Of a stretch of DNA of 61,468 nucleotides, positions 18,098 through 43,437 are shown in pieces. This stretch comes from an uncultured Anaerolineae bacterium. GTDB taxonomy: Bacteria > Chloroflexota > Anaerolineae > DAOTYC01. Position 1 is the stretch's first letter. Every line of letters starts with the position of its first letter. Position numbers and translations under genes: made by a program. The notes beneath the pieces are model-generated. The model was not told where the DNA came from and searched no databases. It saw only the letters and a list, made by a program, of their open reading frames with translations. The stretch is from contig CAZPTF010000001.1 of the NCBI GenBank assembly GCA_964589015.1, forward strand, positions 1 to 61,468, in the 5' to 3' direction.

Positions 18098-18208
18098 TTC
18101 CCGCAACTGAGCAGTAGCTTGTTTTTGTGAGCCGGTGCGTTGCCGGGGTGGTCCCGCTGCGCGCCGGCTCAGTGTTTTTCGGCTCAATTGAGCCAAGGAG
18201 GTATTCCG

Positions 18209-19471: not shown

Positions 19472-19497
19472 TTCGGCGGCAGGAAGGAAAGACTCTG

Positions 19498-19752: not shown

Positions 19753-20203
19753 CCTCACCGCACTCTCCCCTTTTGCAGAGATGGCCAGAACAGCCGTTTC
19801 GGCAGTCTGAAGCTCCGAACCCTGGCACCGCGTTCCCATCGTCACCCGCCGCGGCGGAATTGACGCGGCACTCATCATCCGGGTCCGTGGATGCCAGCCT
19901 CACATTGGTAATCCGGGCGTCCCGCTGCGCCAGCAAGTAATCGATGTGCCAGTGCAGTCGCACGGCGCCGCGCACGTGTCGTAGCACGCGTGCTCGCAAG
20001 CTTCGCGAGGCACGCCCGGTGTAGATATACGTGCCCGCGGCAAAGTGGATCACGCCGAGGGCGCCCACTTTCACCCTGATGGGCCGACGCAGCTCGATCC
20101 ACAGCTGATACACGCCCGCATCCGGCCACGCGTCGAGTGCGGGTGTGAACGTCGGCCCTACATGGTCTTTCAAACTGCGTTTCACGTAACCATCGTACCC
20201 CAA
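19580..20203 (-). CDS. GIY-YIG superfamily nuclease, DUF123-like
   Basis: DUF123-type motifs are 'GTYIYTGRA', 'RVLRHVR......HWHIDYLL' and 'GFGASDC..GCSGHL'. The start is non-ATG (TTG 20203 or GTG 20185). The conserved part ends near 19778. The last ~66 codons are Arg-rich and overlap the convergent gene 19498..19752. Confidence 0.7.
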   Translation of the reverse strand: MGYDGYVKRSLKDHVGPTFTPALDAWPDAGVYQLWIELRRPIRVKVGALGVIHFAAGTYIYTGRASRSLRARVLRHVRGAVRLHWHIDYLLAQRDARITNVRLASTDPDDECRVNSAAAGDDGNAVPGFGASDCRNGCSGHLCKRGECGEATARSRSARCGRWDSRPVAGCPGLPARLRAPGWCAGRPTRSRSSRRNRRRRPGRAPG

Positions 20204-20219
20204 TCACAGGAGTAACCCA

Positions 20220-21794: not shown

Positions 21795-21850
21795 TTCCAG
21801 TTCACGGTTCAACAACCTGTAACCCCTTTTTTGAGAACGGAGGAAACACC

Positions 21851-22828: not shown

Positions 22829-22912
22829 TTGGGGAAGAACCGGGCGGGCGGGGCGACGCAGTTCCGCTCGCTCGGCTTCCGGGTTTTCAGAACAAAGATC
22901 GGAGGTGTGCAG

Positions 22913-23119
22913 ATGAACCAGGAGATTCTGATTGTGATGGAGGGCGGCCTGATCCAGGAGGTCTACGACATCCCGGCCGGCGTCGTGATTCGCGTGAAGG
23001 ACTACGACGTCGAGGGATGCGACCGGCAGAGGCTGAAGCAGGACCCCGATGGAGAACTGTTCTACGAGTCGGTCTGGACACACGAGGACTCGTGCGGACC
23101 GGCGAACGAGCAGGATTGA
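22913..23119 (+). CDS. small hypothetical protein, paralog of 17858..18097
   Basis: The ATG at 22913 is preceded by 'CGGAGGTG'. It shares the 'DYDVEGCD' core with the 17858 gene. Confidence 0.65.
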   Translation: MNQEILIVMEGGLIQEVYDIPAGVVIRVKDYDVEGCDRQRLKQDPDGELFYESVWTHEDSCGPANEQD

Positions 23120-23161
23120 CCCCCAACCTACAGACCCTCAAGAACAAGAAGGAGGTATACC

Positions 23162-23575
23162 GTGTCACACTACGTGGAATGCAGGCCCGGGTTCAAGGAC
23201 CGGGAAGCCCTGATCGCCGCCCTTGTGGCAGTGGGGTTTGAATGCAGCCAGATCGAGATCCATGAGGAAGCTGTCTCACTGTACGGCTACCAGGGCGATG
23301 AACGGCCTCTGAAGGCCCACGTTGTCATCCGCCGGGAGAATGTCGGTCCCGCCGCCAATGACGTTGGCTGGGAACGGCAGGAGGACGGCACCTTCCGAGC
23401 CTGGATCAGCGATTACGACGGCCGGCATCGCTTCAATCCCGCGATGCAGAACCGGATCAAGCAGGAGTACGCGTTTCAGGCTGTCGCGCGGCAGCAGCGT
23501 GCCCTGGGTCGCACAATCCAGCGCCGCGAACTGGAAAACGGTGAGATCGAGGTGGTGATCGGTGGGTATCGCTGA
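23162..23575 (+). CDS. DUF1257 (Ycf35-like) protein
   Basis: N-terminus 'MSHYVECRPGFKDREALIAALVAVGF......YGYQG......AHVVIRR....', typical of DUF1257. The GTG start is preceded by 'AAGGAGG'. Confidence 0.75.
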   Translation: MSHYVECRPGFKDREALIAALVAVGFECSQIEIHEEAVSLYGYQGDERPLKAHVVIRRENVGPAANDVGWERQEDGTFRAWISDYDGRHRFNPAMQNRIKQEYAFQAVARQQRALGRTIQRRELENGEIEVVIGGYR

Positions 23576-23618
23576 TCATCGCTGCCCATCCCGCCAACAA
23601 AGAGAGGAGAAGACAACC

Positions 23619-23822
23619 ATGCATCAGAAACACATTCGGATGATTATCCGTTCGGACGGATCATGCACGGTCGATGCGATGAACTTCACCGACGCAACCT
23701 GCACGCAAGCCACGCAGCAGATTCTGGCGGCCCTCGGCGCCCTGGTTACGGAGGATCGGCTCAAGCCCGAGGCCCAGCGCCTGCCCCCGCAGGCCAATCC
23801 ACGAATGGAGGGCGCCCGATGA
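23619..23822 (+). CDS. DUF2997-like small protein
   Basis: 'IRMIIRSDGSCTVDAMNFTDATCTQATQQILAALG' matches the DUF2997 pattern (I.I..dG.v..ev.G..G..C...T..le.alG). 'GAGAGGAGAA' lies upstream. Confidence 0.65.
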   Translation: MHQKHIRMIIRSDGSCTVDAMNFTDATCTQATQQILAALGALVTEDRLKPEAQRLPPQANPRMEGAR

Positions 23823-24124
23823 TCAAGCTTCGAATCACTCCCGATGGCCGCATCCGAGGCCTGTGGGAGGACTCGCTGGATCTCCACGAACTGGGTGCGC
23901 TGCGCGTGCGCCGGGCCAGTCACGTGGAGTATGACAACGACCGGCAGTGTTGGTGCGTCCGCAGCGCGACGCCAAAGAGGCGGCTCGACCATTGGCTGCA
24001 CCGTCTGCTGGGGCGACCGGCCAGGCAGGTGCTGCATCAAACTACCACGCGTGCATCCGCGCTGGCGTGGGAACATGACCACTTCGGACCCGATGGACGG
24101 GGCTGGAACTCGTTTCCAGAGTAG
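23819..24124 (+). CDS. small hypothetical protein (101 aa)
   Basis: ATGA overlap with the DUF2997-like gene. It is the last gene of the plus-strand block. Confidence 0.55.
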   Translation: MIKLRITPDGRIRGLWEDSLDLHELGALRVRRASHVEYDNDRQCWCVRSATPKRRLDHWLHRLLGRPARQVLHQTTTRASALAWEHDHFGPDGRGWNSFPE

Positions 24125-30774: not shown

Positions 30775-31899
30775 TCACGGCGTGCCGATCAGGTTCTGTT
30801 TGCAGTGCTTGGCTTGGACGGCATACCGTGTGCAGATGTCCAGAAAAGGGCGCACGATGAGGTCTTGGGCTACGCTGCCCGGAAGCCGCCAGCTCCCGCC
30901 GTGAAAGTCAAGCTTCCGCGGGAAGGCACAGGCTCGGTAGATGTCACGGACGGCTAGCATCGTTCCCGAGAGCTTCTGACCGCGGGGCTTCGTTATCTTA
31001 GCTGCGGAGAAAACTACGTGCCGGACGCTGAGGCCCTTTGCGAGGGCGACCAGTTGTTCCAGGTCGTCACGTGACTGGGGCTCGATCAGGCCGAGATCCT
31101 CATGCGAGCCGTTTGACCGCGCGGGAGGAAAGAGGGGATCGATACGCAGAACCACCGGAATTCCTGCATCGCGCAGTGCGTGCAAGCCCTCCTTGCGCGC
31201 TGCAATGGACGGAGCACATGGGTCGTACTGCCGACGTGCCTCCTCCCTCCAGAACGCCAGGCTCACCTCGACCACAAACCCGGGCAGATTGCCCTGGTCA
31301 AATGCAGCACGTCTCGGATGGACATTGGGCAGTGATCCCAGTTGTCGGAACAGGTCGACATAACCCAGCTTGACCGACCGCAATGGATCCTTCGTCAGGA
31401 TGGTGACCGTTGTGAACCGTTGGCGGTGCTGCAGGATCTGCTCGAGCGCGAATCGCGTGTGCTTGTACTCGTTCTCCAGCGGCTGGAACGGGTCCGTGCT
31501 GTTGGACAGGTGAATCGGGGCGGGCGGCACACCAAAGCGTTTCAGATCCTCCATGTCTTTGAGAACGAGTCGTTCAAAGCCCTGTTTGGGTGAGGCGGAG
31601 GCCGGTGAGTAGGACGCGGCGTAACAGTATGCGCACTCATGGGCGCAGCCCGTGTACACGTTGATGCAGTAGCGATGGCCGCTCGGGAAACTGGCCTGGT
31701 CGGCGAAAGGGCAATACCACTTGAGCATGCGTGGCCGTGTTGGCTCAACCACGGGTCTCGCAGAGTTGTGCGGCAGGAAGTACAACGCCAGCGCTGCCTG
31801 TTCCTCCGGCGAGAACGCGTCCCATGCGGGCCGGTACTTCTGGTCAAGACGTTCCACCAAGGCAAGCGCTTCGTTGAAGGTTGGAGCCGGCCGAGGCAT
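30775..31899 (-). CDS. radical SAM protein, SplB / 'DNA repair photolyase' (COG1533)-like
   Basis: CX3CX2C 'INVYTGCAHECAYCYA' (Cys codons 31624-31647) and 'STDPFQPLE'. The start is placed at the ATG at 31899, 32 nt after the DUF488 stop. The ORF opens at 32124 but that part overlaps the DUF488 gene. Confidence 0.85.
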   Translation of the reverse strand: MPRPAPTFNEALALVERLDQKYRPAWDAFSPEEQAALALYFLPHNSARPVVEPTRPRMLKWYCPFADQASFPSGHRYCINVYTGCAHECAYCYAASYSPASASPKQGFERLVLKDMEDLKRFGVPPAPIHLSNSTDPFQPLENEYKHTRFALEQILQHRQRFTTVTILTKDPLRSVKLGYVDLFRQLGSLPNVHPRRAAFDQGNLPGFVVEVSLAFWREEARRQYDPCAPSIAARKEGLHALRDAGIPVVLRIDPLFPPARSNGSHEDLGLIEPQSRDDLEQLVALAKGLSVRHVVFSAAKITKPRGQKLSGTMLAVRDIYRACAFPRKLDFHGGSWRLPGSVAQDLIVRPFLDICTRYAVQAKHCKQNLIGTP

Positions 31900-31931
31900 T
31901 CGGAATGTCTCCGTCTCACAGTACACGTCAG

Positions 31932-32384
31932 CTACTGCAGGTGCACGATACGTACACAACCCCACTTCTGTTCCAGGTACTCGGCGACCAGCCTGCGGTG
32001 GCATTGCTCCGGCGAGGCTTCGCTGCAGAGCAAGCAGGCGTCTGCTAGCTGCTCGCGCGTGACGACCGTCTCGATCCGCTGGCTCGTGATGACCTCGAGG
32101 AACCTGGCCTCGTATGTTGACCAATCGATCCGTTTCTTCAGGTAGTCGTCCAGGAGGGACTCCGTTGGCGCCAGTTCTGGAACATAAACGTAGTCAGTGT
32201 CCAGGATGCGCCTGAGGAAGAACTGGAGGTCGTCCCGCTTGGCGAAACCGGCGAGGTGCGAGGTGTTGCGGCGTCGAACGTCGATTACCCGGCGAACACC
32301 AGCTTCCTCGAGCATGCCGAAGAACGTCGCCGCGTCCTTCTTGGCAAAGCCAATCGTGTATACGGTGATCGTCTTGCCCGGCAT
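31932..32384 (-). CDS. DUF488 family protein
   Basis: 'VYTIGFAKKDAATFFGMLEEAGVRRVIDVRR' and 'LLCSEASPEQCHRRLVAEYL'. The ATG at 32384 lies 1 nt after the upstream stop. Confidence 0.85.
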   Translation of the reverse strand: MPGKTITVYTIGFAKKDAATFFGMLEEAGVRRVIDVRRRNTSHLAGFAKRDDLQFFLRRILDTDYVYVPELAPTESLLDDYLKKRIDWSTYEARFLEVITSQRIETVVTREQLADACLLCSEASPEQCHRRLVAEYLEQKWGCVRIVHLQ

Positions 32385-32385
32385 G

Positions 32386-33657
32386 TCACGCACCGCCCTG
32401 GATTGCAGTTTGATCGTGTGCCAACGCGGAGAGGGCCGCTTCCGCCGCCGCACAGTGCTCGAACTTGCTCTCCTTCGCCCTGAACTCGGGTGTGTGGATC
32501 GCCTGGCGGCCGTTTCGCCAGTCCACGCCAAGTGCCTTGTGCAGAAGCTCGTGATACATGACGAAGTCGAGCAGGTACCCCTCGACGTCAGCTCGGTCCA
32601 GGATGCTGCTGACCATCACCGTATCGCGGATGGGATCATAATGGCCGAGCTTACGGCTGCTGAGCGATCGGCTCCAGCTCAAGCGGGGACGCGCCAGGCT
32701 GCCGCCGAAGTACTTGGCATTGACCCGGTCAAAGGATGCCTGGAGATCATGCTGAAGGCCGGCTGTCTGCTCCTCCACGCCGCCCAGCGCCTCCAGTTCG
32801 GCCTGGATGGCCTGGTACTCGTCACTCAAGGCGGCTTCGATGATCGGCTGCCTACTGCCCAGTTTGAAGGCAGCATTGGCGAGCGACTCGAAGAGCTGCT
32901 GTGAAAAGCAGATCATCGGTGTCGCGAGCATGATCCGAGTCCCATTGCGGTACCCGCGGAGTTTGTAGAGCCCGGCGATGGTCCGAAACTCCAGAAACAC
33001 CGCAGGCCGAAAGCGTTGATTACGCTGTATCGCCGCCTCAAACCTGGGACGGGCCCGATCAGCCGCTGCAAGATACGCGTTCAAGTTCTCACGATCCGAG
33101 AAGAACGCCAGCCATCCACGGGCCGCTCGCGTCTGAGCCGTGAGTTCACCGGACGACAGCCCGTTTTCGTTCAGATGCTCCTCGACGCGCTCGCTCATCG
33201 ATTGAATCGAGCTGTGAATCGCGTTCGCCTGTTCCGCCGAGATAGGCTGCGCCAGGCTGCGAAGAATCCGGTCATGGAACGACTTCAGCCCCACCAGAGA
33301 AACGCTTCCCGGGGCTGGGCGATCCGGATCCCGGTTACCCTGCGGAATGATCTCATCGAAGTTCAGGCCGGCCAGGAATTGATAAGCCCTCCGGGTCGGC
33401 GCCGGCAGGTCCTCGAGGGAAACCCCGTGGCTGGCCAGGATCGCGTCCACCTGGCGCAGGGATTCCTCGACGAACCGGCGGAGCTTCTTCCTTCGGTCGG
33501 CTGACAGCGGCCCCGACATGTCGCGGCGCACGGCGTTCGCGATCCTCACCAAGCCTTTGATGTACAGTCTCTCCATGACCGTCTCCATACCGGTCGGGCT
33601 GCCTGGCGTCAAATCACCGATCGCCGAGAACGCCAACGTTGCTTTCGCAATGCTCAT
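32386..33657 (-). CDS. SprT-like (HExxH) zinc-metalloprotease-domain protein with a ~300-aa helical N-terminal region
   Basis: C-terminal 'FDRVNAKYFGGSLARPRLSWSRSLSSRKLGHYDP..DTVMVSSIL....FVMYHELLHK....HTPEF'. The HExxH is at 32539-32553. ATGA overlap with the upstream GHKL gene. Confidence 0.8.
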   Translation of the reverse strand: MSIAKATLAFSAIGDLTPGSPTGMETVMERLYIKGLVRIANAVRRDMSGPLSADRRKKLRRFVEESLRQVDAILASHGVSLEDLPAPTRRAYQFLAGLNFDEIIPQGNRDPDRPAPGSVSLVGLKSFHDRILRSLAQPISAEQANAIHSSIQSMSERVEEHLNENGLSSGELTAQTRAARGWLAFFSDRENLNAYLAAADRARPRFEAAIQRNQRFRPAVFLEFRTIAGLYKLRGYRNGTRIMLATPMICFSQQLFESLANAAFKLGSRQPIIEAALSDEYQAIQAELEALGGVEEQTAGLQHDLQASFDRVNAKYFGGSLARPRLSWSRSLSSRKLGHYDPIRDTVMVSSILDRADVEGYLLDFVMYHELLHKALGVDWRNGRQAIHTPEFRAKESKFEHCAAAEAALSALAHDQTAIQGGA

Positions 33658-35180
33658 GGGGCAACTTGGACGTCCTCCGTTGGGGCGGTGGTTAGCGATT
33701 CACGCAGCTCGTTCCAACGCTGAGCGTTGTCTGCAACCCATCGGGCGAGGCGCGCACCCATGAGCTCGCACTCTCCACCAAACGCTACGCCGTGCCCGGA
33801 GACCTTCTCATGCGAGCACTCGTGGATGATCAGGGCGAGCGTACGTTCGCCCAACGGGTCTTCCCAAATGAAATCTGCCTCAGTGTTGAGCCTCATGGTA
33901 CCGCTGCTATACGCCGCAGCCGCATTGCCGCCACGAACCCGCTCACAGCGGACGGGTTTTGCCACAAGAGCCGAGGCGATTTCCTCGAAGGCTGCCATGC
34001 ACAGTCGCTGCCTTTGGGTCGCGGGCGGGAAGCCGCGGTCCGTACGGAAGTGTGGCTTGCAGACCTGATCGTGCACCTGGGCAACGGTTGCAGCGTCTCT
34101 CAGGAGCTCGCTCACTCCTGCAGGCAGCGCCCCACGGTTGACGGGCGCGTATCCTCGGTACTCTAGCTCCTGAGACTCACTCACGTCGTCCGGATCGAAC
34201 GGATCGCGTCTGACAATCCGACCGGGATCAGCGCCAGTGACCGACGCAATAAGCGTCTTCCGGCCTTCTTCGCTCAGCTTGGCCGCATTCTCACGGTTGT
34301 CCTTGATCTCAGGGGGAGCGTCATCGTTGTCATTCATGTACCGCACGTACTCGTCGCTCAAAGGCTCGATGAGCTGCGCGATCAGTCCATTCTTGTACGG
34401 CTCCGGCAGCATGTTCCGCTCAACGTCGAGAGGCGTCTTTTGGAGGACATTGATATCGAAGGGGAGGGTCCACGGAGCCGCATCGACAGGTATCCCCAAT
34501 TCAAAGATCATCGGGATGTCGCCGTGGTTGTCGTGAATCTCGACGGATGTTTCTCGTTGGTGCCGACGAATGCGCTCGGATCGGGGATCGTACGTTACCG
34601 TCTGGAGCTTGACCTTTGGAATGATCCGCCTGGGACGTCGCGGAGGGATCTCGTGCCCGTTAACGATGACTCGCACGCCCCCTGGCAGTATGAGGGAGTT
34701 GAAGTATGTGGACAGTTCATCGAACCCCTCGCCGTCATGGCGCAACAAGCCGTCGAGCTGCATTCCGGCTACGGCTTTTCGAACGGAGCTGATCTGGCAG
34801 CCGTCAGCGTTGAATAGCAGCCGGTGCTTCAATGTGCGAATCTCCGCGGACTCTGCAATGGCAAGAACATCGATGAGTCCCTGGCCGAAACGGCCTCGCG
34901 TTTCTGGGTGCAGGTCGCTTGTGGACGATCCGACACGCCGGAGAATCCCGGGTTCGTCGCACCCACACCCATCATCCACACACGTGACCTCGAAAGCTCG
35001 CAAACCGGCTGCGTCACGTCTCGTACCCTTCGCGAGTCGGCAGGTCAGCTCAACGGTCGCTGCCTTCGCGTCGAGGCTGTTCGCGAGCAGTTCCTTCAGA
35101 ATCACGGCGAGCGCACGACAGCGAACAAGCGCAGCACGCTTCTTCACGTCCACACCAAAACGCTCCCTGTACTGAGCCAT
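33654..35180 (-). CDS. GHKL-superfamily ATPase (MORC/MutL-like N-terminal fold), function unknown
   Basis: N-box 'LKELLANSLDA' (35067-35093), 'VDDGCGC' and 'GRFGQGLI'. The ATG at 35180 is preceded by 'GAAGGAGAG'. Confidence 0.85.
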   Translation of the reverse strand: MAQYRERFGVDVKKRAALVRCRALAVILKELLANSLDAKAATVELTCRLAKGTRRDAAGLRAFEVTCVDDGCGCDEPGILRRVGSSTSDLHPETRGRFGQGLIDVLAIAESAEIRTLKHRLLFNADGCQISSVRKAVAGMQLDGLLRHDGEGFDELSTYFNSLILPGGVRVIVNGHEIPPRRPRRIIPKVKLQTVTYDPRSERIRRHQRETSVEIHDNHGDIPMIFELGIPVDAAPWTLPFDINVLQKTPLDVERNMLPEPYKNGLIAQLIEPLSDEYVRYMNDNDDAPPEIKDNRENAAKLSEEGRKTLIASVTGADPGRIVRRDPFDPDDVSESQELEYRGYAPVNRGALPAGVSELLRDAATVAQVHDQVCKPHFRTDRGFPPATQRQRLCMAAFEEIASALVAKPVRCERVRGGNAAAAYSSGTMRLNTEADFIWEDPLGERTLALIIHECSHEKVSGHGVAFGGECELMGARLARWVADNAQRWNELRESLTTAPTEDVQVAP

Positions 35181-35230
35181 CCGACTCTCCTTCAGCTTAC
35201 AACCCTTCGGAACGATCCCCTGACACGATG

Positions 35231-35260
35231 AATCACGCCGCGGTTCGAGGCAGCGTGATT
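35231..35260 (-). promoter_or_regulatory. inverted repeat in the leader of the GHKL operon
   Basis: Perfect 8-bp arms AATCACGC / GCGTGATT (35231-35238 and 35253-35260) with a 14-nt spacer, 50-80 nt upstream of the ATG at 35180. It could be an operator or an RNA hairpin. Confidence 0.25.
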
Positions 35261-35450
35261 GCCCTAGCATATGGGTCTTCGCAAACGGCTTTCAGTAGTA
35301 TGCGCCCTTCTCGATTTCTGACTGTGGCCACACCTTGGAAATACCACTACGTATGCGTGTGCATGCCGTCCGATTGTACGCACTGAATCGTGGAGCGCAA
35401 CGGTCCAGGCCAAGTTGGATTCCCGGCGGGCGGATGATCGACTCATCGCT

Positions 35451-35738
35451 TTAGCCGCACAAGCTGCCGATGATCACGAGGATCACAGCACCGATCAGGA
35501 TGTACCCGAAGACGGCACCACCCGATGTTCCGCCGTCGGACGTCGAAATCGGCACACGCACGGGTTCGATGCCGTTGCGCGGCGGCTTCGAGTGCATACG
35601 CCGAAGGGGTTTGCCGCCCTGTTGGACGAGCCTCCAGGGCTTACCGCAGGAATGACATCGCCACTCATACCCGAATCCCGCATTCTTCGGGAAGTGCATC
35701 CGCCGCCCGCAATCACATCTGCCTGCCAAGTGTGACAT
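35451..35738 (-). CDS. small zinc-ribbon protein with a C-terminal TM helix
   Basis: 'CDCG...CHSCG' and 'AVFGYILIGAVILVIIGSLCG'. The ATG at 35738 is preceded by 'CAGGAGAA'. Confidence 0.6.
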   Translation of the reverse strand: MSHLAGRCDCGRRMHFPKNAGFGYEWRCHSCGKPWRLVQQGGKPLRRMHSKPPRNGIEPVRVPISTSDGGTSGGAVFGYILIGAVILVIIGSLCG

Positions 35739-36337: not shown

Positions 36338-36640
36338 ATGACTATCAGAATGCGAAGCCCGGTCGCAGTCTTGTCGGCAGCAGCGATCCTGCTCTTCACG
36401 AACTCCCCGGCCCTTGGCCTGTGGGTCGAAGGCAGCAGCATGATCGAGTGGACCTGGTCTCTCAGGACGGAGCACATCACTGGTGCTGCGATCGCGGTGA
36501 TCGCGTTGTTGCTGATATTGTTGCACTCACCTGCCCTGAGGAACGCGCCGCGGCTGCAGCGAGCCCGTCGTTGCCCCGTCTGCGATGAGGAGCTCCGGCC
36601 GAAGGGGCGGTACTGTCCGACGTGTGGGAGTCGAGTTTGA
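36338..36640 (+). CDS. small two-TM protein with a C-terminal zinc ribbon
   Basis: 'VAVLSAAAILLF', 'AAIAVIALLLILL' and 'CPVCDEEL...YCPTCG'. The ATG at 36338 is preceded by 'GAAAGGTGGG'. Confidence 0.6.
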   Translation: MTIRMRSPVAVLSAAAILLFTNSPALGLWVEGSSMIEWTWSLRTEHITGAAIAVIALLLILLHSPALRNAPRLQRARRCPVCDEELRPKGRYCPTCGSRV

Positions 36641-36662: not shown

Positions 36663-37514
36663 CTACGCGGAGGTCGTGCGCGTTGGATCGCGATCACTGT
36701 CGCCGCTCGCCGTCGAGCCAGCACCACGGGCGTGAAGTTGACGATTGAAGCGAAGCCTCTCCCAAAAACGGCGCAATCGATCCGTGTCCCGTACTGTAAT
36801 CTGCCTGCGAAAGTGAAAGACGTCATTTCGCAATTCGTTGATTCGCTTAAGGTCCGCGTCAACGAGCTCACGCTGGCAGCGGAAGAACGGTTCGAACCTT
36901 GCCCAGCGGTCGCGCGAGCACATGATATCCAGGTATTGGCTAAAGCTCAGGTCCTTCAGGTCGCGGATAGGCTTCGCCTTCGGTTGAGTGAGTTCCTTGA
37001 ACACGTCCTCTCGCTCTTCGTCCGTCAACAGCGTCTCGATGACATCGCGCAGGTCGAGTTCTATTTCGTAAAGGAGCACAAAGGCCTCCGCGAAGTCGTT
37101 CAGCCTACCAAAAACGTCCGCCGTGGTCAGAATGCCGATTAGGTTGTCAGGGGCTCCGACGAGAACGTAGTCAATCCTACTCCAGTCGGTCGCCTTGTCC
37201 GTGTCGATGTACGTCTCGGGCGAAATGAAGACCGGCTCGTCCATGCAATCTCGGACTGTCAACTCCGTCGCGTCGAGCTTATTGCCGCGTAGGTCGAGCG
37301 CCCGCTTGCCGAACGACTGCCACGAGAAGATTCCGCTGATCTCACCTTCGCTGTTCCTCACTGGAATCTGCGAGAAACCCTCGTCGATCATCTGCTCTAA
37401 AGCGCTCCACACCAAGTCGTCTTCATGGGCAATGACCACCTCCTGTCCTGAAGGAAGGAGTGCATGCGCAGGACCGAAGGGGCCTGGCCGGCGATTTGGA
37501 AATCCTCGCGTCAT
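36663..37514 (-). CDS. CBS-pair domain protein with a C-terminal HEPN-like (Rx4H) domain
   Basis: CBS-like 'VVIAHEDDLVWSALEQMIDEGFSQIPVRNSEGEISGIFS' and 'VGAPDNLIGILTTADVF'. C-terminal 'INELRNDVFHFRRQ' fits the R-x4-H HEPN motif. ATGA overlap with the GmrSD stop. Confidence 0.8.
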   Translation of the reverse strand: MTRGFPNRRPGPFGPAHALLPSGQEVVIAHEDDLVWSALEQMIDEGFSQIPVRNSEGEISGIFSWQSFGKRALDLRGNKLDATELTVRDCMDEPVFISPETYIDTDKATDWSRIDYVLVGAPDNLIGILTTADVFGRLNDFAEAFVLLYEIELDLRDVIETLLTDEEREDVFKELTQPKAKPIRDLKDLSFSQYLDIMCSRDRWARFEPFFRCQRELVDADLKRINELRNDVFHFRRQITVRDTDRLRRFWERLRFNRQLHARGAGSTASGDSDRDPTRTTSA

Positions 37515-39607
37515 GTCGTGGCAACCAGATACGCTTGCCTGATCATTGGCAACGCCTTCTCGATGTCGTCTGCTTCACGAATCGGAATCGAAACGCCCCC
37601 TTCATACTGCGCATAGAACAGGAACTTCCACTGTGTGGCATCCTGGGCTATTCCTGATGGATCATCGACCTCGTTAAAATCCAGTGGCAGCAGCAAGTTG
37701 ATGCGGTGTTTCCGAGGGAGCACTTCAAGGAAGAAGCCAGGGGCGTGGTAGCTGACCGACTTCTGCTCGGCTAGCTCGATGATATCACCGTCCATCTCTT
37801 GAATGCGCTTTCTGAGCAACTCGAAGAGCATCCTGGCGATTGTGCTCATCTTCACCTTTGCCACGTCACGTCGTTCCGCGAGTGCTCGCATTTCGATCTG
37901 CTCTGCGGCATCGATGAGCGATTGATCTACGACAAGTCGGGGCCACACCTGCAAAGCTTGCTGCGCCAGCTGCTGGCCGCGACACTGCATCTCATCCGCG
38001 GTCCACTGGGGTTGTTCCCGTACGAATCGATTCAAACGAACAGAGCTCTCTGCGAAGCCGCCGGAGATCGACTTCTTCTCTTCGAATGGCCTATCGGAGT
38101 AGGTGCTGTTGTAACCCGTTAATGTCAGGTTACCGAGGCGGTGCAGCCAATCCTTCTGGACCTCGCGCCATTCCTCCCCCAGCATCTTCCGCCACTCCGG
38201 CGAGAGCTTCTCATTCTGAGGCATGATGTGCTCGATCGAGAACTTGCTCGTATCCGTTGGCTCCTTGTTTCCATGATTTTCCAAGCGATCGAGCAGGTGC
38301 GTGCAGACGCGAAGACCGTACAAGTCGCGTTCCTCTACGGCCTTTCGGAACTCGACATCATCTGGAAACCGATAGTTGTCACGTTGTCGCGCGAGTCCAA
38401 CCGTGAGGCTCTCGAACGGACGGTCCTGGTCGAGGCGATATGCGAGATTCGCGAACGTCTGCCAGTAACCCCGGGTCTGCTCCCCACAGATGGCCCGCCG
38501 GAAGACGTAGCTCTCGATCAGCTCGATGGCTTTGACGAACTCGGCTTCGCTCAGCGTTCCGTTGTGATCGTGCAAATCGTACAACCGCATCACGAGCGTC
38601 GCTGGAACGTCCACCAACCGGCGTAAGCGGGCGAGGGGTTCACGCAGCGCTTGGGCTGCGTCGGCGCCGATGCTGAACGCGGCGTGGTACCGAGCGAAGC
38701 GCAGGAGGTCCTGCAGGAAACCATCGAGGTTCTCAACTTCAGATCCGATCGCCCCAAAAAGCCGGCGGAAAGCGAAGTAAATCTCGTCAGCCTTCTCTTG
38801 CTTGCTGGCTTGGGTGCGGAGGGCGATATAGTCGCGCACGAAGGCGTCGAATGTCTTTTCCGATCCGCGGAAAAGGCTCTCTATCTTGCTCCAGTACGTT
38901 TCGTACAGGCGCGTCTGTTCTCGTTCCGGCAACCGCATCAGGATGAAATTGCGAATCAAGTCAGACTGGCTAAGGTCCATGCCTGTCGAGTTCAGACTCT
39001 CGAAGATCAGCTGCGGATCGTCGGTGCCCCTATCCAGCGTGACGTCAACGACGACGAGGCGTCCGATGCCTTTGTAGACCTCCTCCGGGTCGGCATCGGC
39101 GAGCTGCTCCCGGAAGAAATCGTAGTTGTCGCGGATCCGCTCGGAGGCCTCGGCCGGAAGATCCAGTCCTTCAAGTAGGGCATTCAGCGTGGCTTGGTCG
39201 TGCCTCCGTAGGACCAACTTGTGCTCACGACTCCCTTCCTCTTGCACGTTCTTGAGAAAGTACGCTTCCACGCGCTTGACGGTCGGCCCGTCCTCCGTGC
39301 CCGTCCATTCGATCTCCCGGATGTGGTCCCGGAGCGCTGTAAGCAGTAACGTCAGCGTTGTCACCCGCTGTTGACCATCGATGAGCAGCCACCGCGTGAA
39401 TCCGGCCGATGAGTCCCCTGTGGATACATAAACGACCGAGCCGAGGAAATGCCCACGCTCAGTGGTATCAGACGCAATCTGGAGGATGTCCTTCCACAAC
39501 TGCTCGCACTCGGCTTCGGTCCAGCTGTAGTCCCGCTGAAAGACCGGGATCACGAACTGCGTGGTGCCGTTAATGATCTTTGTGAATGGGCGGTCAATCG
39601 CTTTCAT
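37511..39607 (-). CDS. GmrSD-family type IV restriction enzyme (DUF262 + DUF1524) with an extra C-terminal domain
   Basis: DUF262 'FVIPVFQRDYSWTEAECEQLWKDI'. DUF1524/HNH-like 'FSIEHIMPQN....W...HRLGNLTLTGYN'. Confidence 0.88.
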   Translation of the reverse strand: MKAIDRPFTKIINGTTQFVIPVFQRDYSWTEAECEQLWKDILQIASDTTERGHFLGSVVYVSTGDSSAGFTRWLLIDGQQRVTTLTLLLTALRDHIREIEWTGTEDGPTVKRVEAYFLKNVQEEGSREHKLVLRRHDQATLNALLEGLDLPAEASERIRDNYDFFREQLADADPEEVYKGIGRLVVVDVTLDRGTDDPQLIFESLNSTGMDLSQSDLIRNFILMRLPEREQTRLYETYWSKIESLFRGSEKTFDAFVRDYIALRTQASKQEKADEIYFAFRRLFGAIGSEVENLDGFLQDLLRFARYHAAFSIGADAAQALREPLARLRRLVDVPATLVMRLYDLHDHNGTLSEAEFVKAIELIESYVFRRAICGEQTRGYWQTFANLAYRLDQDRPFESLTVGLARQRDNYRFPDDVEFRKAVEERDLYGLRVCTHLLDRLENHGNKEPTDTSKFSIEHIMPQNEKLSPEWRKMLGEEWREVQKDWLHRLGNLTLTGYNSTYSDRPFEEKKSISGGFAESSVRLNRFVREQPQWTADEMQCRGQQLAQQALQVWPRLVVDQSLIDAAEQIEMRALAERRDVAKVKMSTIARMLFELLRKRIQEMDGDIIELAEQKSVSYHAPGFFLEVLPRKHRINLLLPLDFNEVDDPSGIAQDATQWKFLFYAQYEGGVSIPIREADDIEKALPMIRQAYLVATT

Positions 39608-39811
39608 AGGCGCTCTCTTCTGGATTGCTCATCTTTTGGTGTTCTCTCGCAGCTGTACGCTCATTGAACAGCGTGTTCCTCGTGATTCCACGCATGGATA
39701 AGCGCTCATGGCGAGTCGACAAGCCCGTTCTCGTTAGGAAGTGCCTAGGCGGAGTCGAGATTACTTCAGACTTCTGCACCATGGTATAGAATCCGGTCCG
39801 ACGAGCGGCCA

Positions 39812-40597
39812 TCATGTCCGCTCCGACCTTGCGGGTTCTGGCCAGTCGCCAGCCTCGACACGTTGGCGTATCCGCTCCAAGAGAAGGCGCTCATTGGACC
39901 TCATTAGCACATAGCGGTCGTATGTTCGGCCGCCGTGGCTGCGCCGTTCTGGTTCAAGCCGACGGCTGGCGACGGTGTACGCCTGGTTAAGGCTGTCGAC
40001 GCGTGCCGTCACAACCCCTTCTTCGACTGAAATACGATCGGCATCGATTCTCATCACATCAGCTTCACGTTCCACTGGATAGCAGGTGGAAACCTGAATG
40101 CGTACGTCGGCACGGACGTCACAGCATTCAAGCCTGTCCGCTTTGCCCGGCTTCATTTCAAGCTGGCCCACCAGCCGGACCGTCACGCGCCAGGGCGAAT
40201 CCTTGGCCTGATTGCGAAGCAGGGTGTCGAGTTCGGCGGCCTTTAACGCAACGGCGAAGATCTCGCCCGAGCTAAGGACGAGAAAGCGGTCTCGACTGCT
40301 CTTCCACTGTACGCCGGGCGGTGGCAGTGCTCCAAATCGCGAGCGCACTGTTTCTTCCTCCCGGATCGCGTTCCATGCCCAGTGAAGTTGGCTGTCCGAG
40401 AGCTCGATACTCGTTTCGCGGAACTCTCCTCGCACTCCCGCGGCCCAATTTGAGTAGGCCAAGCCGTTATCTGCGCGTGCAAGGCGCTCAGTCCAATCAA
40501 AACCGGCGGTAATCAGTTGCCCGAGGATGTGACTGTGGTCTTCCATGTTGACTCTTTGGTGATAGTCACCGTGCTGCTCTTCGTTCAGCGCGGCCAT
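39812..40597 (-). CDS. hypothetical protein (261 aa), third gene of the helicase trio
   Basis: The ATG at 40597 lies 1 nt after the upstream TAG, with GGGAG ~9 nt upstream. No motif recognised. Confidence 0.65.
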   Translation of the reverse strand: MAALNEEQHGDYHQRVNMEDHSHILGQLITAGFDWTERLARADNGLAYSNWAAGVRGEFRETSIELSDSQLHWAWNAIREEETVRSRFGALPPPGVQWKSSRDRFLVLSSGEIFAVALKAAELDTLLRNQAKDSPWRVTVRLVGQLEMKPGKADRLECCDVRADVRIQVSTCYPVEREADVMRIDADRISVEEGVVTARVDSLNQAYTVASRRLEPERRSHGGRTYDRYVLMRSNERLLLERIRQRVEAGDWPEPARSERT

Positions 40598-40598
40598 T

Positions 40599-41303
40599 CT
40601 ACGCACTCCCACCGCTAGCCCGCCGGTTCGGTGATTCTCCCCGCCAGGAGAAGTGCAAGAACTCCTCATCCCGCGGCCGAATGGAGCGGTTCCAGCGTGC
40701 CTGTTTCATGTCCCTTAGGAATCTGTGTTCGCACCACAGATGTGGGTAGAAATGCCGAAAGACGAAACGAGAGAATCGCCCGATGCTCACCGGTCCTGCG
40801 ACCGCACAGCGGCAATGCGCCCACAGCATATGCACGTGGGTCGCCGAGTGATCATCATCCTCGTGTTGTGAGTCAAAGTCGAAGCGTAACGGTGTTCGCA
40901 ACCGGAGATAATCCGCCCCTTCGCTCTCATACGTGTCAACAACATCAAGCATCGGGTCCTGTGCCAATAGGGCTGGATCGACGTCATAGGGACATGGATA
41001 GAAGCAGAGCCGATGCCGAACGAGTGTGTTTCCACGAAAATCGTACGAGAGCTGTATCAGGGCCCCGTCCGCCAGAACAACCAAGTAGTCCTGTGACTCC
41101 AGAAGAGCGCGATACTCATCGATGCTCGCGAACGCGAAGTCCGTGAGCCGACCCGTTCTTGCCGCCAAGCGCTGCGAAGTGATCCTAGTCAGACTCGGTT
41201 CGGGATGCTGCGGCACAACGGGATTAGCAGTAAGCGCCACCCCTTGGTTCACCAAGAGGTCGGCATAATCCCGCATCTCCGCCATAAGCTGACTAGGCGT
41301 CAT
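40599..41303 (-). CDS. hypothetical protein (234 aa), possibly DUF2290-like
   Basis: The ATG at 41303 is preceded by 'GGAGTGAGGGGG' and overlaps the helicase stop by 11 nt. It has a His-rich stretch 'HEDDDHSATHVHMLWAHC'. The family guess is from memory and needs an HMM check. Confidence 0.7.
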   Translation of the reverse strand: MTPSQLMAEMRDYADLLVNQGVALTANPVVPQHPEPSLTRITSQRLAARTGRLTDFAFASIDEYRALLESQDYLVVLADGALIQLSYDFRGNTLVRHRLCFYPCPYDVDPALLAQDPMLDVVDTYESEGADYLRLRTPLRFDFDSQHEDDDHSATHVHMLWAHCRCAVAGPVSIGRFSRFVFRHFYPHLWCEHRFLRDMKQARWNRSIRPRDEEFLHFSWRGESPNRRASGGSA

Positions 41304-43437
41304 TTGCCCCCTCACTCCTGAAGAATCGCTTGAGCGCCTCTCGCATCTCAGGGGGCAAACTCTCGATAGCCATGTCCCCGGCCTCAACGGCCTCGACGAA
41401 TTCCTGCAGCGTTTTCTGAACTCGGTCGATCTTCGCCCGTTCGCTGGCAGTCCTTTCCCGATGGATCATCCGCATGCGTGCCAGCTCAGCACCAGTCGGT
41501 ACGGTGAAATCCAGTTTGTAATCATGCGTCCGGACCGCCTCGACTTCCGCGATAAGTTCTTCCATGTCTGCGCCGACTCCGTAGAGGCGAACCCATGCAC
41601 GTGAACGTGTGATCGCAGTAAAGAGGATGTTCCTCACCTTGATGAGCTCGTGGCCGCCGACGCAGTATTGGCTGTTGAGGACGTACACCATCGGCGCCTC
41701 ATTACCCTTCGCGCGATAGATGTTTGCAAGCGCAACAGATCCCTTCGCAAAGATCTCATCGGCACTGGTCGAGACGCCTGCGATATGCGACCGGATGCCG
41801 CGTTGCGCCAACGCATTCATCACGACGGCCGCCCGGCGTTTGGCAGTAAGCACGTTGGGTAGGATGATGAGAATGTCGTCGGGTTCGAGTTCGTCCTCTG
41901 TGAGATTGCGTTGTATTTCCGCCGCGACAGTCTCGGCCTGGTGATTCTCGTCGTCGAGCTTCTGGCAGCGAATTGCATCACCTCGATTCAGATGCGTCGC
42001 AAAATAGGCAGGATAGCTACTCTCCGATCGCTTCAGGCTGACCTGCTCTCCGGGATCGGGGCTTCCATCAAGCACCGTGTATCCGATCTCAGACCACAAG
42101 CCGGGGTCGTCAAACAACTGTACCAAGCCCCCGTCGCGGTAGATTCCGAAGCCAAGCGAGTGAGCGAGCGTCAGAGCCCACGGCGTGTTGCGATAGCAGA
42201 CTGGTAAGGTGATGTCTTGGCGGGGCTCGCCAGCTGTGTTGGCCAACTGGATCCGTGGTCTGCCGGTCGAGTCCTTGCCAAACAGATCTTCGAGGGGCGG
42301 CATGCTCGTGTCGGAGAGATTCTGGAGCTCATCGTACGCCCAGATGAGCCGCTTCGGGTCGTTCGTGAAATCGTACACAAGGTGGAAAAAAGACCACGGA
42401 AGGTCCTGAGCTTCATCTATCAAGACGGCGTCGTAAATCGGTTCGACACTTCGCCCTTTCGTGGCAGACAGAAGTTCCCGGCAAATCCCGTGGAATGCCT
42501 CGTTCATACCGTACGTCGTCTTTGCGTAGAGGTAGTTACGCGGAGGAACGCCGATACTCTCAGCCATCTGGGCGTAAGCGCCCGGCTTGGAAGCGCTGCC
42601 CCAAGCATGGATGATCTTCAGCCGGTCCCAGTTCGGCTCGTCATTCGAATGCTCGAATGAGAAGCGGCGCACCAGATCGGTGAGCTGCTGGTAAAGCGAG
42701 CGCGTGTGGAACGTCAGGGCTATGTTCCAATCGGGGTTCTGCGCATGCAAGTAAGCAGCCTTCAGCGCCAGGACGACGGTCTTGCCGGATCCAGCCAACC
42801 CACGAATGCGTTGCGGGCCGATCGGTGTTTCGATCGCCGCTCGCTTTTGCCACTGATCGAGATTCGCGATTTCTCGCTCGATTTCGCGCATGATGGCGCC
42901 GCGCGAATCGCCACGAGTTAATTTGGCTCGCTTCTTGCTTGGCTTGATCGTCGTGACCCGCTGGAGTGCGGCGTTGAGTGGACGCTGGTACTGGGCGTCA
43001 AACTGCTCAGAGTTGCCCAACACCGCGCTGAGGTTCCCTGGCCCTGCCACCACCAGATCACGACCAGCGGGGACCTGGAGATTGTCCGGGAAGAAGCTGA
43101 TCACGTTGATTGGTATGGCCAGATCGCGTCGGTGACGCAGCGCCAGGTGCCGCCCCAGGTTCGTCTGCATGGCGAAGTAGAGGGTGTCCTGCTTCTCCTG
43201 CACGCGATCCCAGAATTCATCGTTCGGCGGCTGGCCTGCTCCATTGCCCACGGCGAACACGACCAAACCAAACTGATCGCATACGAGCAGCGCCTCGACG
43301 AAGATGCTCTCATCCGCGGACGACAGGACCGGGTAGCCGATGTAAAGCGTGCCATCGACGTTGAACCCCTCGATCAACTCGACGAGCTGATTCGTCACCA
43401 TCGGGTTCTTCGTCTGACCGTATACGACTTCAAGCAT
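41293..43437 (-). CDS. superfamily-1 (UvrD/DUF2075-like) helicase with a degenerate NERD-like N-terminal domain
   Basis: Walker A 'GLAGSGKTVVLA', 'VLIDEAQDLP', and C-terminal 'LFTAITRSRAWV'. The ATG at 43437 is preceded by AAAGG; the ORF opens with GTG at 43446. Confidence 0.88.
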   Translation of the reverse strand: MLEVVYGQTKNPMVTNQLVELIEGFNVDGTLYIGYPVLSSADESIFVEALLVCDQFGLVVFAVGNGAGQPPNDEFWDRVQEKQDTLYFAMQTNLGRHLALRHRRDLAIPINVISFFPDNLQVPAGRDLVVAGPGNLSAVLGNSEQFDAQYQRPLNAALQRVTTIKPSKKRAKLTRGDSRGAIMREIEREIANLDQWQKRAAIETPIGPQRIRGLAGSGKTVVLALKAAYLHAQNPDWNIALTFHTRSLYQQLTDLVRRFSFEHSNDEPNWDRLKIIHAWGSASKPGAYAQMAESIGVPPRNYLYAKTTYGMNEAFHGICRELLSATKGRSVEPIYDAVLIDEAQDLPWSFFHLVYDFTNDPKRLIWAYDELQNLSDTSMPPLEDLFGKDSTGRPRIQLANTAGEPRQDITLPVCYRNTPWALTLAHSLGFGIYRDGGLVQLFDDPGLWSEIGYTVLDGSPDPGEQVSLKRSESSYPAYFATHLNRGDAIRCQKLDDENHQAETVAAEIQRNLTEDELEPDDILIILPNVLTAKRRAAVVMNALAQRGIRSHIAGVSTSADEIFAKGSVALANIYRAKGNEAPMVYVLNSQYCVGGHELIKVRNILFTAITRSRAWVRLYGVGADMEELIAEVEAVRTHDYKLDFTVPTGAELARMRMIHRERTASERAKIDRVQKTLQEFVEAVEAGDMAIESLPPEMREALKRFFRSEGANDA

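Follow-up and report, generated by a model that had tools for sequence, protein, structure and literature searches.

A cluster of four genes in a 61,468-nt stretch of DNA from an uncultured Anaerolineae bacterium (the window, analysed at its full length) appears to be a composite. Three of the genes, G2, G3 and G4, form a clade-restricted trio that may repair DNA-protein crosslinks or adducts within a mobile-element and defence island, and the GHKL ATPase gene upstream, G1, would be a later, unrelated neighbour. We favour this composite reading tentatively, at somewhat less than an even chance. The features discussed here are the following.

33654..35180, minus strand: G1, a 508-aa GHKL ATPase with a C-terminal small zincin-like domain
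32386..33576, minus strand: G2, about 396 aa from its probable start at M28, with an SprT-like zincin domain
31932..32384, minus strand: G3, a 150-aa DUF488 protein of the 'active N3' (N3a) subclade
30775..31899, minus strand: G4, a 374-aa radical SAM protein of the COG1533 ('DNA repair photolyase'/SplB-like) assemblage
36338..36637, plus strand: a small membrane and zinc-ribbon protein, divergent and upstream of G2, used as a context marker

The first-pass annotation described an array of four tightly packed minus-strand genes. This array is present in the ORF list, and every motif quoted for it is borne out in the translations: ELLANSLDA, DDGCG and GRFGQG in G1; FDRVNAKYFGGSL, YHELLHK and HTPEF in G2; VYTIGF, VIDVRR, LLCSE and CHRR in G3; and CAHECAYC and DPFQPLE in G4. 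All four domain assignments also survive at the family level, where HMM, profile and structure evidence agree. The 1-nt gap between G2 and G3 at 32385 is seen in the letters as 'TGAcATG', and the 32-nt spacer between G3 and G4 (31900-31931) is confirmed and contains GGAGA. The proposed ATGA overlap of G1 and G2 can likewise be read ('ccccATGAgc' at 33657-33654), but it needs the first ATG of the longest G2 ORF (32386-33657, 423 aa). The N-termini of a 31-member family alignment begin at M28 of the window protein ('MERLYIKGLV'), GGAG lies 6 nt upstream of this ATG, and the AlphaFold model has a pLDDT of about 50 over residues 1-27. A 77-nt gap is therefore the more likely junction, with G2 spanning 32386-33576, and 'translational coupling' of the two genes is probably an artefact of start-codon choice. 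Starts of the other genes lie at 35180 for G1 (family-consistent 'MAQYRERF' within the longest ORF, 33654-35270), at M50 of ORF 31932-32531 for G3 and at M76 of ORF 30775-32124 for G4. No terminator-like or promoter-like sites above shuffle expectation occur between the four genes, an Rfam search of the locus gives no match, and no GC shift is seen there.

G1 consists of a Bergerat fold and an S5-like transducer domain followed by a zincin-like domain. Pfam HATPase_c_3 matches all 25 family members examined, although the window protein itself, at 24.7 bits, is just under the cut-off of 25. Residues E30, N34, D37, D69xGxG and GRFGxG are invariant in the family. Foldseek searches with the AF2 model (pLDDT 88) return TRAP1/Hsp90, MORC2/3 and MutL/PMS2 (E 4e-12 to 1e-6). 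The protein is like these transducer-containing GHKL ATPases, and like the sacsin-like ones, in all Bergerat motifs and in its GHKL and S5-like transducer fold. It also matches the sacsin N-terminal domain weakly in NCBIfam, and four relatives match Pfam SACS, a link to prokaryotic sacsin-like ATPases. In place of the MutL endonuclease, the MORC CW/coiled-coil module or the Hsp90 C-terminal domain, G1 carries the zincin-like motif H453-E454-x-x-H457-x4-G462-H463 (HECxHx4GH), which is invariant in the family. Because G1 has this zincin of its own besides that of G2, the locus encodes two putative metalloproteases rather than the single one first recognised.

The G1 family is small (65 clusters found) and resides largely in Planctomycetota and Myxococcota metagenome bins with variable neighbours. 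Initially all four genes were taken as a single system, and it is conceivable that they are one machine, in which the GHKL ATPase, as an ATP-powered clamp or remodeller, would hand substrates over to the proteases and the radical SAM enzyme. The shared strand, the 0-77 nt spacing and the lack of a detectable terminator agree with this idea, and the gene order is kept in six contig copies. However, these copies are all 100% identical and are one lineage, which provides no independent evidence. None of 10 other independent G1 loci has G2, G3 or G4 within 6-10 kb, no relative of G1 occurs at any of the 86 other G2 loci, and beyond this contig lineage G1 was not found at any locus of G2 or G4. In sister loci the position of G1 is taken by a Cys-rich gene of 120-136 aa, found directly upstream of G2 in L025, L006 and L029 (33 nt away in L025 and L006). 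The 36338..36637 marker, which has weak Pfam DZR/zinc-ribbon matches, is also divergent and upstream of G2 in L025, L006 and L033 (39-52% identity by tblastn), and only in this window are G1 and a 95-aa ORF (35451-35738) located between the two. A second GHKL protein (GHKL2, 14782-16452 in the window) recurs in L026, L027 and L189 at 2-6 kb from the G4 orthologue, and a GHKL and radical SAM theme may thus exist. Still, GHKL2 does not adjoin the trio and shows no relationship to G1 outside the ATP-binding motifs. Synteny has already largely refuted a four-gene machine, which we regard as very improbable. G1 is best read as a separate gene, typical of mobile-element or conflict islands, that came to lie upstream of the trio in this contig lineage alone. 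G1 and the trio may share a transcript, and the common strand, spacing and lack of a detectable terminator mean that G1 may have been functionally recruited there.

G2 combines two domains. The N-terminal domain, about 270 aa of helices and beta-sheet, has no relatives in Pfam or the PDB. The C-terminal domain (residues about 300-415) is a zincin of the SprT/Wss1/minigluzincin type with the motif H369-E370-x-x-H373 ... H388. PF10263 matches 7 of 31 family members (alignment A2), and the window protein is below every Pfam threshold. An hhalign comparison with the Spartan SprT domain gives a probability of 78% (E 1.8e-5), and the motifs align with 6mdx in phmmer. The AF2 model (pLDDT 87) finds selecase, abylysin, Spartan (6mdw), Wss1 and phage SprT-like proteins in Foldseek; Spartan, Wss1, minigluzincins and phage SprT-like proteins have the same small zincin fold and are its best structural matches. 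The domain shares the N-terminal helix 'F..VN..YF.G.L' with SprT, Spartan (SPRTN) and Wss1 proteins (PF10263), and its third His lies 15 residues past the second, as in Spartan. Unlike Spartan, G2 has the conserved N-terminal domain and lacks the zinc-binding and ubiquitin/PCNA-interaction modules of Spartan; its activity on DNA-protein crosslinks is putative. The SprT fold and motifs are a hint of repair. The family is large, with 655 clusters at E<=1e-30.

G4 has the CX3CX2C core (C85, C89 and C92) that it shares with SplB and other COG1533 proteins. Four more cysteines (C63, C78, C356 and C366) are invariant in alignment A3; together with a conserved N-terminal extension, they are to our knowledge not a feature of SPL. 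Pfam Radical_SAM matches all 25 family members sampled, with the window protein at 24.8 bits against a cut-off of 29.5. The best NCBIfam matches, to the PA0069 (E 2e-18) and Rv2578c (E 2e-10) families, are partial and below equivalog level, at 66 bits (cut-off 360) and 41 bits (cut-off 430). Two family members match Pfam SPL weakly, and profile searches of the PDB with G4 give no match, including no PDB sequence match to SPL. The label 'SplB-like' consequently holds at the COG1533 or superfamily level and fails at the level of the SPL, PA0069 and Rv2578c models, whose cut-offs are far above the G4 scores; identity with SPL is rejected, a point against repair. At least 792 relatives carry the JGI annotation 'DNA repair photolyase', and membership of the COG1533/PA0069 assemblage hints at repair.

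The association of G2, G3 and G4 is real and recurs outside this contig, but it is confined to G2 relatives of at least 40% identity. At least seven diverged contigs (G2 40-60% identical) have G2 and G4 side by side, whether or not G3 is present. L025 has all three genes in the order G2-G3-G4 (60, 70 and 69% identity), G2 and G4 are adjacent in L026, L030 and L031, and they overlap by 23 nt in the P0082/P0211 contig. Linkage falls steeply with G2 identity, from 5 of 9 assessable loci at 50% or more to 1 of 14 at 40-50% and 0 of 47 below 40%; this last count is also a point against repair. Beyond close relatives, then, the four families do not co-occur as a set, and the trio does so in part. 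In the G2 tree the linked loci group in a single clade, all but L189, which belongs, like L035, to the sister clade. Beside G2, the loci L029, L033, L052 and L035 retain deletion scars of either G3 or G4. These patterns are best explained by a trio already present in the ancestor of one Planctomycetota (Phycisphaerae-type) clade of genomes and elements. Since linkage is clade-restricted and repeatedly lost, G2 clearly works without G3 and G4.

The same observations allow a reading with no functional link, in which four independent enzymes are adjacent through shared local gene-order ancestry in a gene-dense, rearranging island. G1 is clearly independent, G2-G4 linkage is limited to related sequences, G3 and G4 are lost while G2 is kept, and most G4 orthologues are solo. 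Yet adjacency persists although flanking genes vary among the linked loci, and the spacing is tight (1 nt, 32 nt and the 23-nt overlap). L189 retains the three families but in the order G4-DUF488-G2, the reverse of that here, and its DUF488, only 28% identical to G3, is not an orthologue; without selection for proximity, such an arrangement is difficult to account for. The absence of any functional link is judged quite unlikely. L189 also has a second SPL-like gene next door (PF20903, 26.7 bits).

G3 matches PF04343 (77.2 bits, cut-off 22.2) and PF22751 DUF488-N3a (48.7 bits, cut-off 27), and its YTIG, DVR and LLCSE...CHR motifs are conserved across relatives. It is best read as a Cys-based phosphoesterase-type protein of the rhodanese-phosphatase superfamily. 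Burroughs and Aravind reportedly predicted in 2023 that the RapZ-C/DUF488/DUF4326 clade processes DNA ends in nucleic-acid-modifying conflict systems. G3 also matches PADLOC PDC-M45C over its full length (E 9e-63), and a 54%-identical Allochromatium relative lies inside a type III CRISPR locus; both observations speak against repair.

These matches raise the possibility that the trio, with or without G1, is a mobile-element conflict system. In a defence version, radical SAM chemistry could damage or modify invading DNA with the protease as effector. An anti-restriction or anti-defence system, by analogy with ArdC, is just as conceivable. ArdC-type proteins combine a ssDNA-binding domain and an SprT-like metalloprotease and are found on conjugative plasmids. 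G2 is similarly a two-domain protein with a C-terminal SprT-like zincin in a mobile-element context, and L006 has both ArdC and a G2 orthologue, but the N-terminal domain of G2 is not ArdcN (no Pfam match) and most G2 relatives are chromosomal single genes.

The surroundings fit a conflict role in several respects. The large defence region reported next door is present, with GmrSD, a DUF2290-helicase pair, a DrmMI/type IIG enzyme, a DpdE/DrmD-like protein, a DruE-like protein and a class II pAgo. The window trio resides between this island and a mobile-element backbone in common with the ArdC-bearing L006. Tight packing beside a defence island stands, and membership of all four genes in one set does not. 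Defence genes adjoin the trio in L025 as well, which is near PglZ, and this adjacency in both copies is a further point against repair. CHAT and DisA_N genes adjoin G1 relatives on a cyanobacterial plasmid, and G2 relatives are found on conjugative cyanobacterial plasmids. However, PADLOC models match none of G1, G2 and G4, and no relatives of G1 or G2 were found in IMG/VR. PDC-M45 itself is a three-gene cassette (hypothetical protein, long DUF488 and short DUF488) seen in Allochromatium pAt1; G3 is a clear match to component C, but it is solo here, between a protease and a radical SAM enzyme, and components A and B are absent. PDC systems are also candidates, nominated through embedding in known defence loci (bioRxiv 10.1101/2024.01.29.577857). 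Housekeeping neighbours (GH57, aldo-keto reductase, hydrolases and nitroreductases) prevail at most of 87 G2 loci and at solo G4 loci. A conflict system is therefore rather unlikely. The claim that no four-gene system of this composition has been described holds for PADLOC and the searchable literature.

The most likely role of the trio is an undescribed DNA-damage repair module, specifically for DNA-protein or DNA-peptide crosslinks. Spartan and Wss1 trim crosslinked protein, and G2 would do so in the same manner. The photoproduct-lyase-like G4 might then reverse the residual methylene-bridged base adduct by 5'-deoxyadenosyl-radical chemistry, and G3 may clean up phosphate or phosphotyrosyl-type DNA ends. 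The domain identities, trio recurrence and rearrangement, G1 independence and island context are observed; we infer that DNA is the substrate, in what order the proteins act and by what chemistry. Among the four families, we know of an experimental link to DNA only for SprT/Spartan homologues.

The occurrence of repair-type genes near G2 and G3 relatives is anecdotal. On about 100 conjugative plasmids, a formaldehyde-detoxification island has a G3-like DUF488 (51% identical) flanked by a UvrA paralog and frmR, and some G2 relatives are near ImuB/DnaE2 or near RecA and a RecD-like helicase, both hints of repair. For the most part, relatives of G2 and of G4 are single genes in ordinary chromosomal surroundings, which is the pattern expected of repair enzymes.

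The four genes under study, annotated at first pass as a GHKL ATPase, a SprT-like zincin, a DUF488 protein and a radical SAM enzyme (G1 to G4), are consecutive open reading frames on the minus strand of the window. All of the motifs quoted for them are found in the translations.

33654-35180, minus: G1, GHKL ATPase, 508 aa, family-consistent start
32386-33657, minus: G2, SprT-like zincin, 423 aa as the longest ORF, with a probable start at 33576 instead
31932-32384, minus: G3, DUF488 protein, 150 aa, family-consistent start
30775-31899, minus: G4, radical SAM protein, 374 aa, family-consistent start

Read from the DNA, the junctions are an ATGA at 33657-33654, a TGAcATG that leaves 1 nt (32385) between G2 and G3, and, before G4, a spacer of 32 nt that contains a GGAGA. 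The ATGA proposed to couple G1 to G2 is present as sequence, but the coupling itself is doubtful. In a 31-sequence alignment, the N-termini of G2 relatives align at M28 of the window protein ('MERLYIKGLV'), a GGAG lies 6 nt 5' of this ATG, and residues 1-27 have low confidence in the structure model. G2 therefore probably starts at 33576. This start would leave a real gap of approximately 77 nt after G1, and the apparent coupling is then probably an artefact of choosing the longest ORF. GC content is flat throughout the four-gene region, and there is no signal above shuffle expectation between the four genes. Scans of 30.3-36.8 kb for Rfam families, repeats, promoters and terminators returned no Rfam match and nothing informative.

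The assignment of G1 as a GHKL ATPase stands. Bergerat motifs I-III are invariant in its family (E30, N34, D37, D69, G71, G73 and G96-G101). The window protein alone falls just below the Pfam HATPase_c_3 cut-off (24.7 bits versus 25), and all 25 aligned family members match this model. A structure model (pLDDT 88) gives Foldseek matches to TRAP1/Hsp90, MORC2/3 and MutL/PMS2 that cover both the GHKL and the transducer domain (E 4e-12 to 1e-6). The C-terminal stretch of about 120 residues (window 33654-34015) has a feature that was overlooked earlier, an invariant HECxHx4GH motif formed by H453-E454-C-x-H457-x4-G462-H463. The predicted topology of this region, a helix, three strands and a helix, would fit a zincin. 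No Pfam model matches residues 261-508 and no PADLOC model matches the C-terminal domain. A relationship to the G2 zincin was rejected at profile level (hhalign probability 0.8%). G1 is thus a putative fusion of a GHKL ATPase with a metalloprotease, and its C-terminus a putative second zincin at the locus.

The complete set of four genes was seen only in six copies of the window contig from a metagenome. These copies are 100% identical and so do not provide independent evidence. G1 was traced to seven genome loci, three further contigs and relatives on plasmids. After removal of duplicates, 10 independent loci remained, and G2, G3 and G4 are absent from every one of them. Their G1 neighbours vary and include DUF3631, another GHKL protein with a kinase, and DisA_N with CHAT. 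Conversely, G1 is absent from every G2 or G4 locus outside the window. In three comparison loci (L025, L006 and L029) the position that G1 takes in the window, upstream of G2, is held by a small Cys-rich gene of 120-136 aa, and a conserved zinc-ribbon membrane gene (window 36338-36637) marks a common upstream boundary. The conserved four-gene operon of the first-pass annotation should therefore be downgraded, as co-occurrence of all four genes in diverged genomes was not found. That the four form a single machine, as originally proposed, is contradicted by this synteny and is very unlikely. The record is corrected accordingly: the GHKL-zincin fusion is not part of the association among the other three genes. 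Its family is small (65 clusters) and found in variable mobile-element and conflict contexts. This separate, rare family of conflict-island genes merits its own study.

G2, G3 and G4 present a different picture. A set of 87 distinct loci was anchored on G2, and 70 have sufficient flanking sequence to be judged. An intact G4 adjoins G2 in six of the 70: five of nine loci in which G2 is at least 50% identical to the window protein, one of 14 at 40-50%, and none of 47 below 40%. The linked loci are arranged as follows.

L025: G2-G3-G4 (60, 70 and 69% identity)
L026, L030 and L031: G2-G4
P0082/P0211, a 5.5-kb JGI contig: a 45%-identical G2 overlaps a 63%-identical G4 by 23 nt (P0082 recognised by its length and the size of its contig)
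L189: reversed order, G4 (57%), DUF488 (28% identical to G3), G2 (40%)

Four further pairs of G2 and G4 homologues (P0032/P0201, P0035/P0206, P0045/P0226 and P0037/P0299) are suggested to share a contig, since contigs of the same size occur in both match lists; their sources also overlap, except for P0037/P0299. Other loci carry remnants. Fragments of G3, G4 or both directly follow G2 in L029 (5238-5327), L033 (8181-8333) and L052 (606-727), and a decayed DUF488 C-terminus in which CHR has become CPR directly precedes G2 in L035 (6774-6953). Such in-place fragments beside an intact G2 are deletion scars that record repeated loss of G3 and G4 with retention of G2, which argues that G2 is functionally autonomous. 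A tree of G2 places the linked and scarred loci in one clade, except for L189 and L035, which fall in its sister clade. Flanking genes vary between the linked loci, and the adjacency is kept in diverged loci with different flanks, a different order or both. G2-(G3)-G4 is an ancestral association that recurs inside one Planctomycete clade. Its survival through rearrangement and replacement of the DUF488 gene argues for selection. That the adjacency reflects pure chance or common ancestry is unlikely, and the changed gene order in L189 weakens this explanation.

The gene that follows G4 (305 aa) and the ORF that precedes G1 (95 aa) have no relatives in any fetched locus and were rejected as members of the association, and the 307-aa and 163-aa genes that adjoin G4 in L026 and L027 are missing from the window. 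Neighbours of the distant G2 clades show no common theme (alpha/beta-hydrolase, BNR/sortilin-like and nitroreductase genes). Scans of IMG/VR found no relatives of G1 or G2, and radical SAM matches there are only 24-36% identical, none of them near DUF488, G1 or G2. Next to the L189 genes lies a divergently oriented second radical SAM gene (6641-7747, minus; Pfam SPL 26.7 versus 27 bits), and an HU-like gene is found nearby, as in L025.

The SprT-like assignment of G2 is borne out by both its catalytic motif and its small zincin fold. H369, E370, H373 and H388, which make up HExxH and, downstream of it, the third zinc-ligand histidine, are invariant across 31 family sequences. These motifs align with those of Spartan (6mdx), including the conserved N-terminal helix that precedes HExxH. 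The window protein itself has no Pfam match even at E<=10, and seven of the 31 family members match PF10263 SprT-like (best E 1.2e-5). Alignment to the Spartan SprT domain by hhalign has a probability of 78% (E 1.8e-5) with the motifs in register. In the structure model (pLDDT 87), residues 300-415 or so superpose on the minigluzincins selecase (TMt 0.61-0.73) and abylysin, on Spartan 6mdw (probability 1.0, 24% identity) and on Wss1 5xbv, and many phage SprT-like proteins or models also match. As no more than about 100 of the 423 residues align, the Foldseek E-values are weak (0.03-2). Residues 28-300 make up a conserved domain of helices and beta-sheet for which PDB and Pfam contain no relative. 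Searching PDB sequences with G2, G3 and G4, both as single sequences and as profiles, gave nothing useful beyond the weak Spartan match, and G4 had no match. The G2 family comprises 655 clusters (50% identity) at E<=1e-30.

G4 is a radical SAM protein, and its description as SplB-like is valid at the superfamily level only. The cysteines C85, C89 and C92 of the [4Fe-4S]/SAM motif (CX3CX2C) are invariant. PF04055 Radical_SAM is matched by all 25 family members aligned, with the window protein itself at 24.8 bits versus a cut-off of 29.5. PF20903 SPL is barely detectable, in just two of the 25 (E 0.002). The nearest curated models are of COG1533 type, PA0069 (66 bits, cut-off 360) and Rv2578c (41 bits, cut-off 430), and scores so far below the cut-offs, together with the lack of a PDB match, place G4 outside the curated SPL, PA0069 and Rv2578c models. 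Four further invariant cysteines (C63, C78, C356 and C366) may provide ligands for a second cluster or for zinc. G4 has at least 792 relatives, over 100 of which are at least 56% identical, and most orthologues are solo genes.

G3 is a clear DUF488 protein, as is E. coli YeaO. It scores 77.2 bits against PF04343 (cut-off 22.2) and 48.7 bits against PF22751 (cut-off 27), and it belongs to the 'active N3' (N3a) subclade. The YTIG, DVR and C-x-E...CHR motifs are conserved; T10, G12, D35, V36, R37, C120, E122, C128, H129 and R130 are invariant among its relatives. Burroughs and Aravind are said to have predicted in 2023 that the clade to which DUF488 belongs processes nucleic-acid ends. About 100 enterobacterial plasmids carry, between a UvrA paralog gene and frmR, a DUF488 gene whose product is 51% identical to G3. 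One example is Klebsiella plasmid pKp55 (L191, NZ_KY887594.1 159778-163692), and the island also holds fghA and an alcohol dehydrogenase gene for formaldehyde detoxification.

G3 also matches the PADLOC candidate component PDC-M45C (E 9e-63). PDC-M45 is a three-gene cassette, A>>B>>C (FAM_01974>>FAM_00888>>FAM_01897; 10.1101/2024.01.29.577857, supplement). Since none of G1, G2, G4 or ten neighbouring genes matches component A or B in PADLOC, the locus is not a member. A full cassette of this type, a hypothetical protein followed by a long and a short DUF488, is present on plasmid pAt1 of Allochromatium tepidum (L190 4720-6444), where it lies inside a type III CRISPR-Cas locus, with csx16/cas1 on one side and csm6 on the other. 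A PADLOC scan of G1-G4 and 19 neighbours matched only G3 among the four, so that the locus does not count among the catalogued defence systems. G2, G3 and G4 might instead serve in mobile-element conflict, as the PDC-M45C match, the CRISPR-embedded DUF488 relative and the location beside a defence island would suggest. However, there is no other PADLOC match among the three and most relatives reside in housekeeping contexts, which makes a conflict function rather unlikely.

The reading we prefer, tentatively and at close to an even chance, is that of a composite locus that contains a DNA-repair trio, G2, G3 and G4. The domain identities, the recurrence of the trio and the independence of G1 rest on observation; that the trio acts on damaged DNA is an inference. 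Zincins of the SprT, Spartan and Wss1 type proteolyse DNA-protein crosslinks. G2 relatives lie near ImuB/DnaE2 and also near RecA with a RecD-like helicase, and most family members are solitary chromosomal genes. The predicted end processing by DUF488 and the relative flanked by UvrA and frmR point the same way. The one COG1533 enzyme to have been characterised reverses a methylene-bridged thymine dimer (PMC3467042). Judging from family annotation and gene neighbours, the substrate of G4 would likewise be a DNA lesion.

In this preferred reading, the predicted protease G2 would trim a crosslinked protein, the radical SAM enzyme G4 would reverse the residual peptide-base adduct, and G3 would clean up the DNA ends. 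It is quite unlikely that the trio goes as far as to be a bacterial pathway, so far undescribed, that removes DNA-protein crosslinks completely, in which proteolysis is followed by direct radical-SAM reversal of a methylene-bridged adduct and DUF488 clean-up, with a GHKL-zincin remodeller also recruited in this contig lineage. If true, it would provide the first function for non-sporulating SPL-like radical SAM enzymes and for DUF488. Bacterial DNA-protein-crosslink repair is poorly understood. To our knowledge, COG1533 'SplB-like' enzymes outside spore-formers and DUF488 are large families without an assigned function. Their recurrent linkage to a SprT-type protease, which extends to a reordered locus whose DUF488 is non-orthologous, yields a testable hypothesis of a protease, a radical lyase and an end-processing enzyme working together. 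The UvrA-adjacent DUF488 in a formaldehyde-resistance island is an independent hint of a role in DNA damage.

Each of the four proteins adds a new member or variant to a known superfamily, and none reaches a curated equivalog model. The locus would be a repair-type gene cluster assembled from known enzyme superfamilies. The trio is absent from PADLOC and from the searchable literature. The latter combines DUF488 with radical SAM nowhere and does not have 'PDC-M45' in main text, and an earlier description of DUF488, radical SAM and SprT together is possible in Burroughs & Aravind 2023.

The window is a mosaic, with a mobile-element-like block on one side of the four genes and, as recognized at first pass, a large defence island on the other. 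The block at window 17106-24124 is held in common with L006 (9800-17173) at 60-89% protein identity and encodes a DnaN-like protein, an AAA ATPase (89%), DUF123, DUF3150, DUF1257 and DUF2997. L006 also encodes ArdC, DUF4365 and DUF499. The common block looks like a Planctomycete mobile-element backbone. The island and other features of the window are listed here.

94-645, plus: HTH-like protein, 183 aa
764-12631, minus: large ORFs with Ser/Thr-kinase domains (PD-T4-6/mad6-like PADLOC matches), between which lie two ORFs of 568-646 aa without a match
14782-16452, plus: second GHKL-type protein, 556 aa, weak HATPase_c_3 match, followed by a small conserved gene at 16562-16762
36663-43437, minus: GmrSD-type (DUF262/DUF1524) enzyme with a 4-nt overlap with a 283-aa CBS-domain gene, adjoined by a UvrD-like helicase and DUF2290 pair that matches PADLOC models
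43468-55428, minus: three giant genes in a row that mix DISARM, Dpd and Druantia components, namely a DrmMI/type IIG methyltransferase-like protein (1303 aa), a DpdE/DrmD-like SNF2 helicase (974 aa, DpdE E 8e-265) and a DruE-like helicase (1728 aa)
56528-57463: 311-aa ORF that precedes and overlaps the Argonaute gene
57415-59838, plus: class II prokaryotic Argonaute (PADLOC pAgo_II, E 3e-293)

The second GHKL protein has only ATP-binding motifs in common with G1 and was rejected as its relative. In L026, L027 and L189, orthologues of this second protein (51-64% identical) are encoded at a distance of 2-6 kb from those of G4, which indicates that these loci have a broader backbone in common. 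Relatives of the HTH-like protein (45-61% identical), which is encoded 30 kb from the trio in the window, are found 0.5-4 kb from G4 or G2 in L027, L030, L031 and L189.
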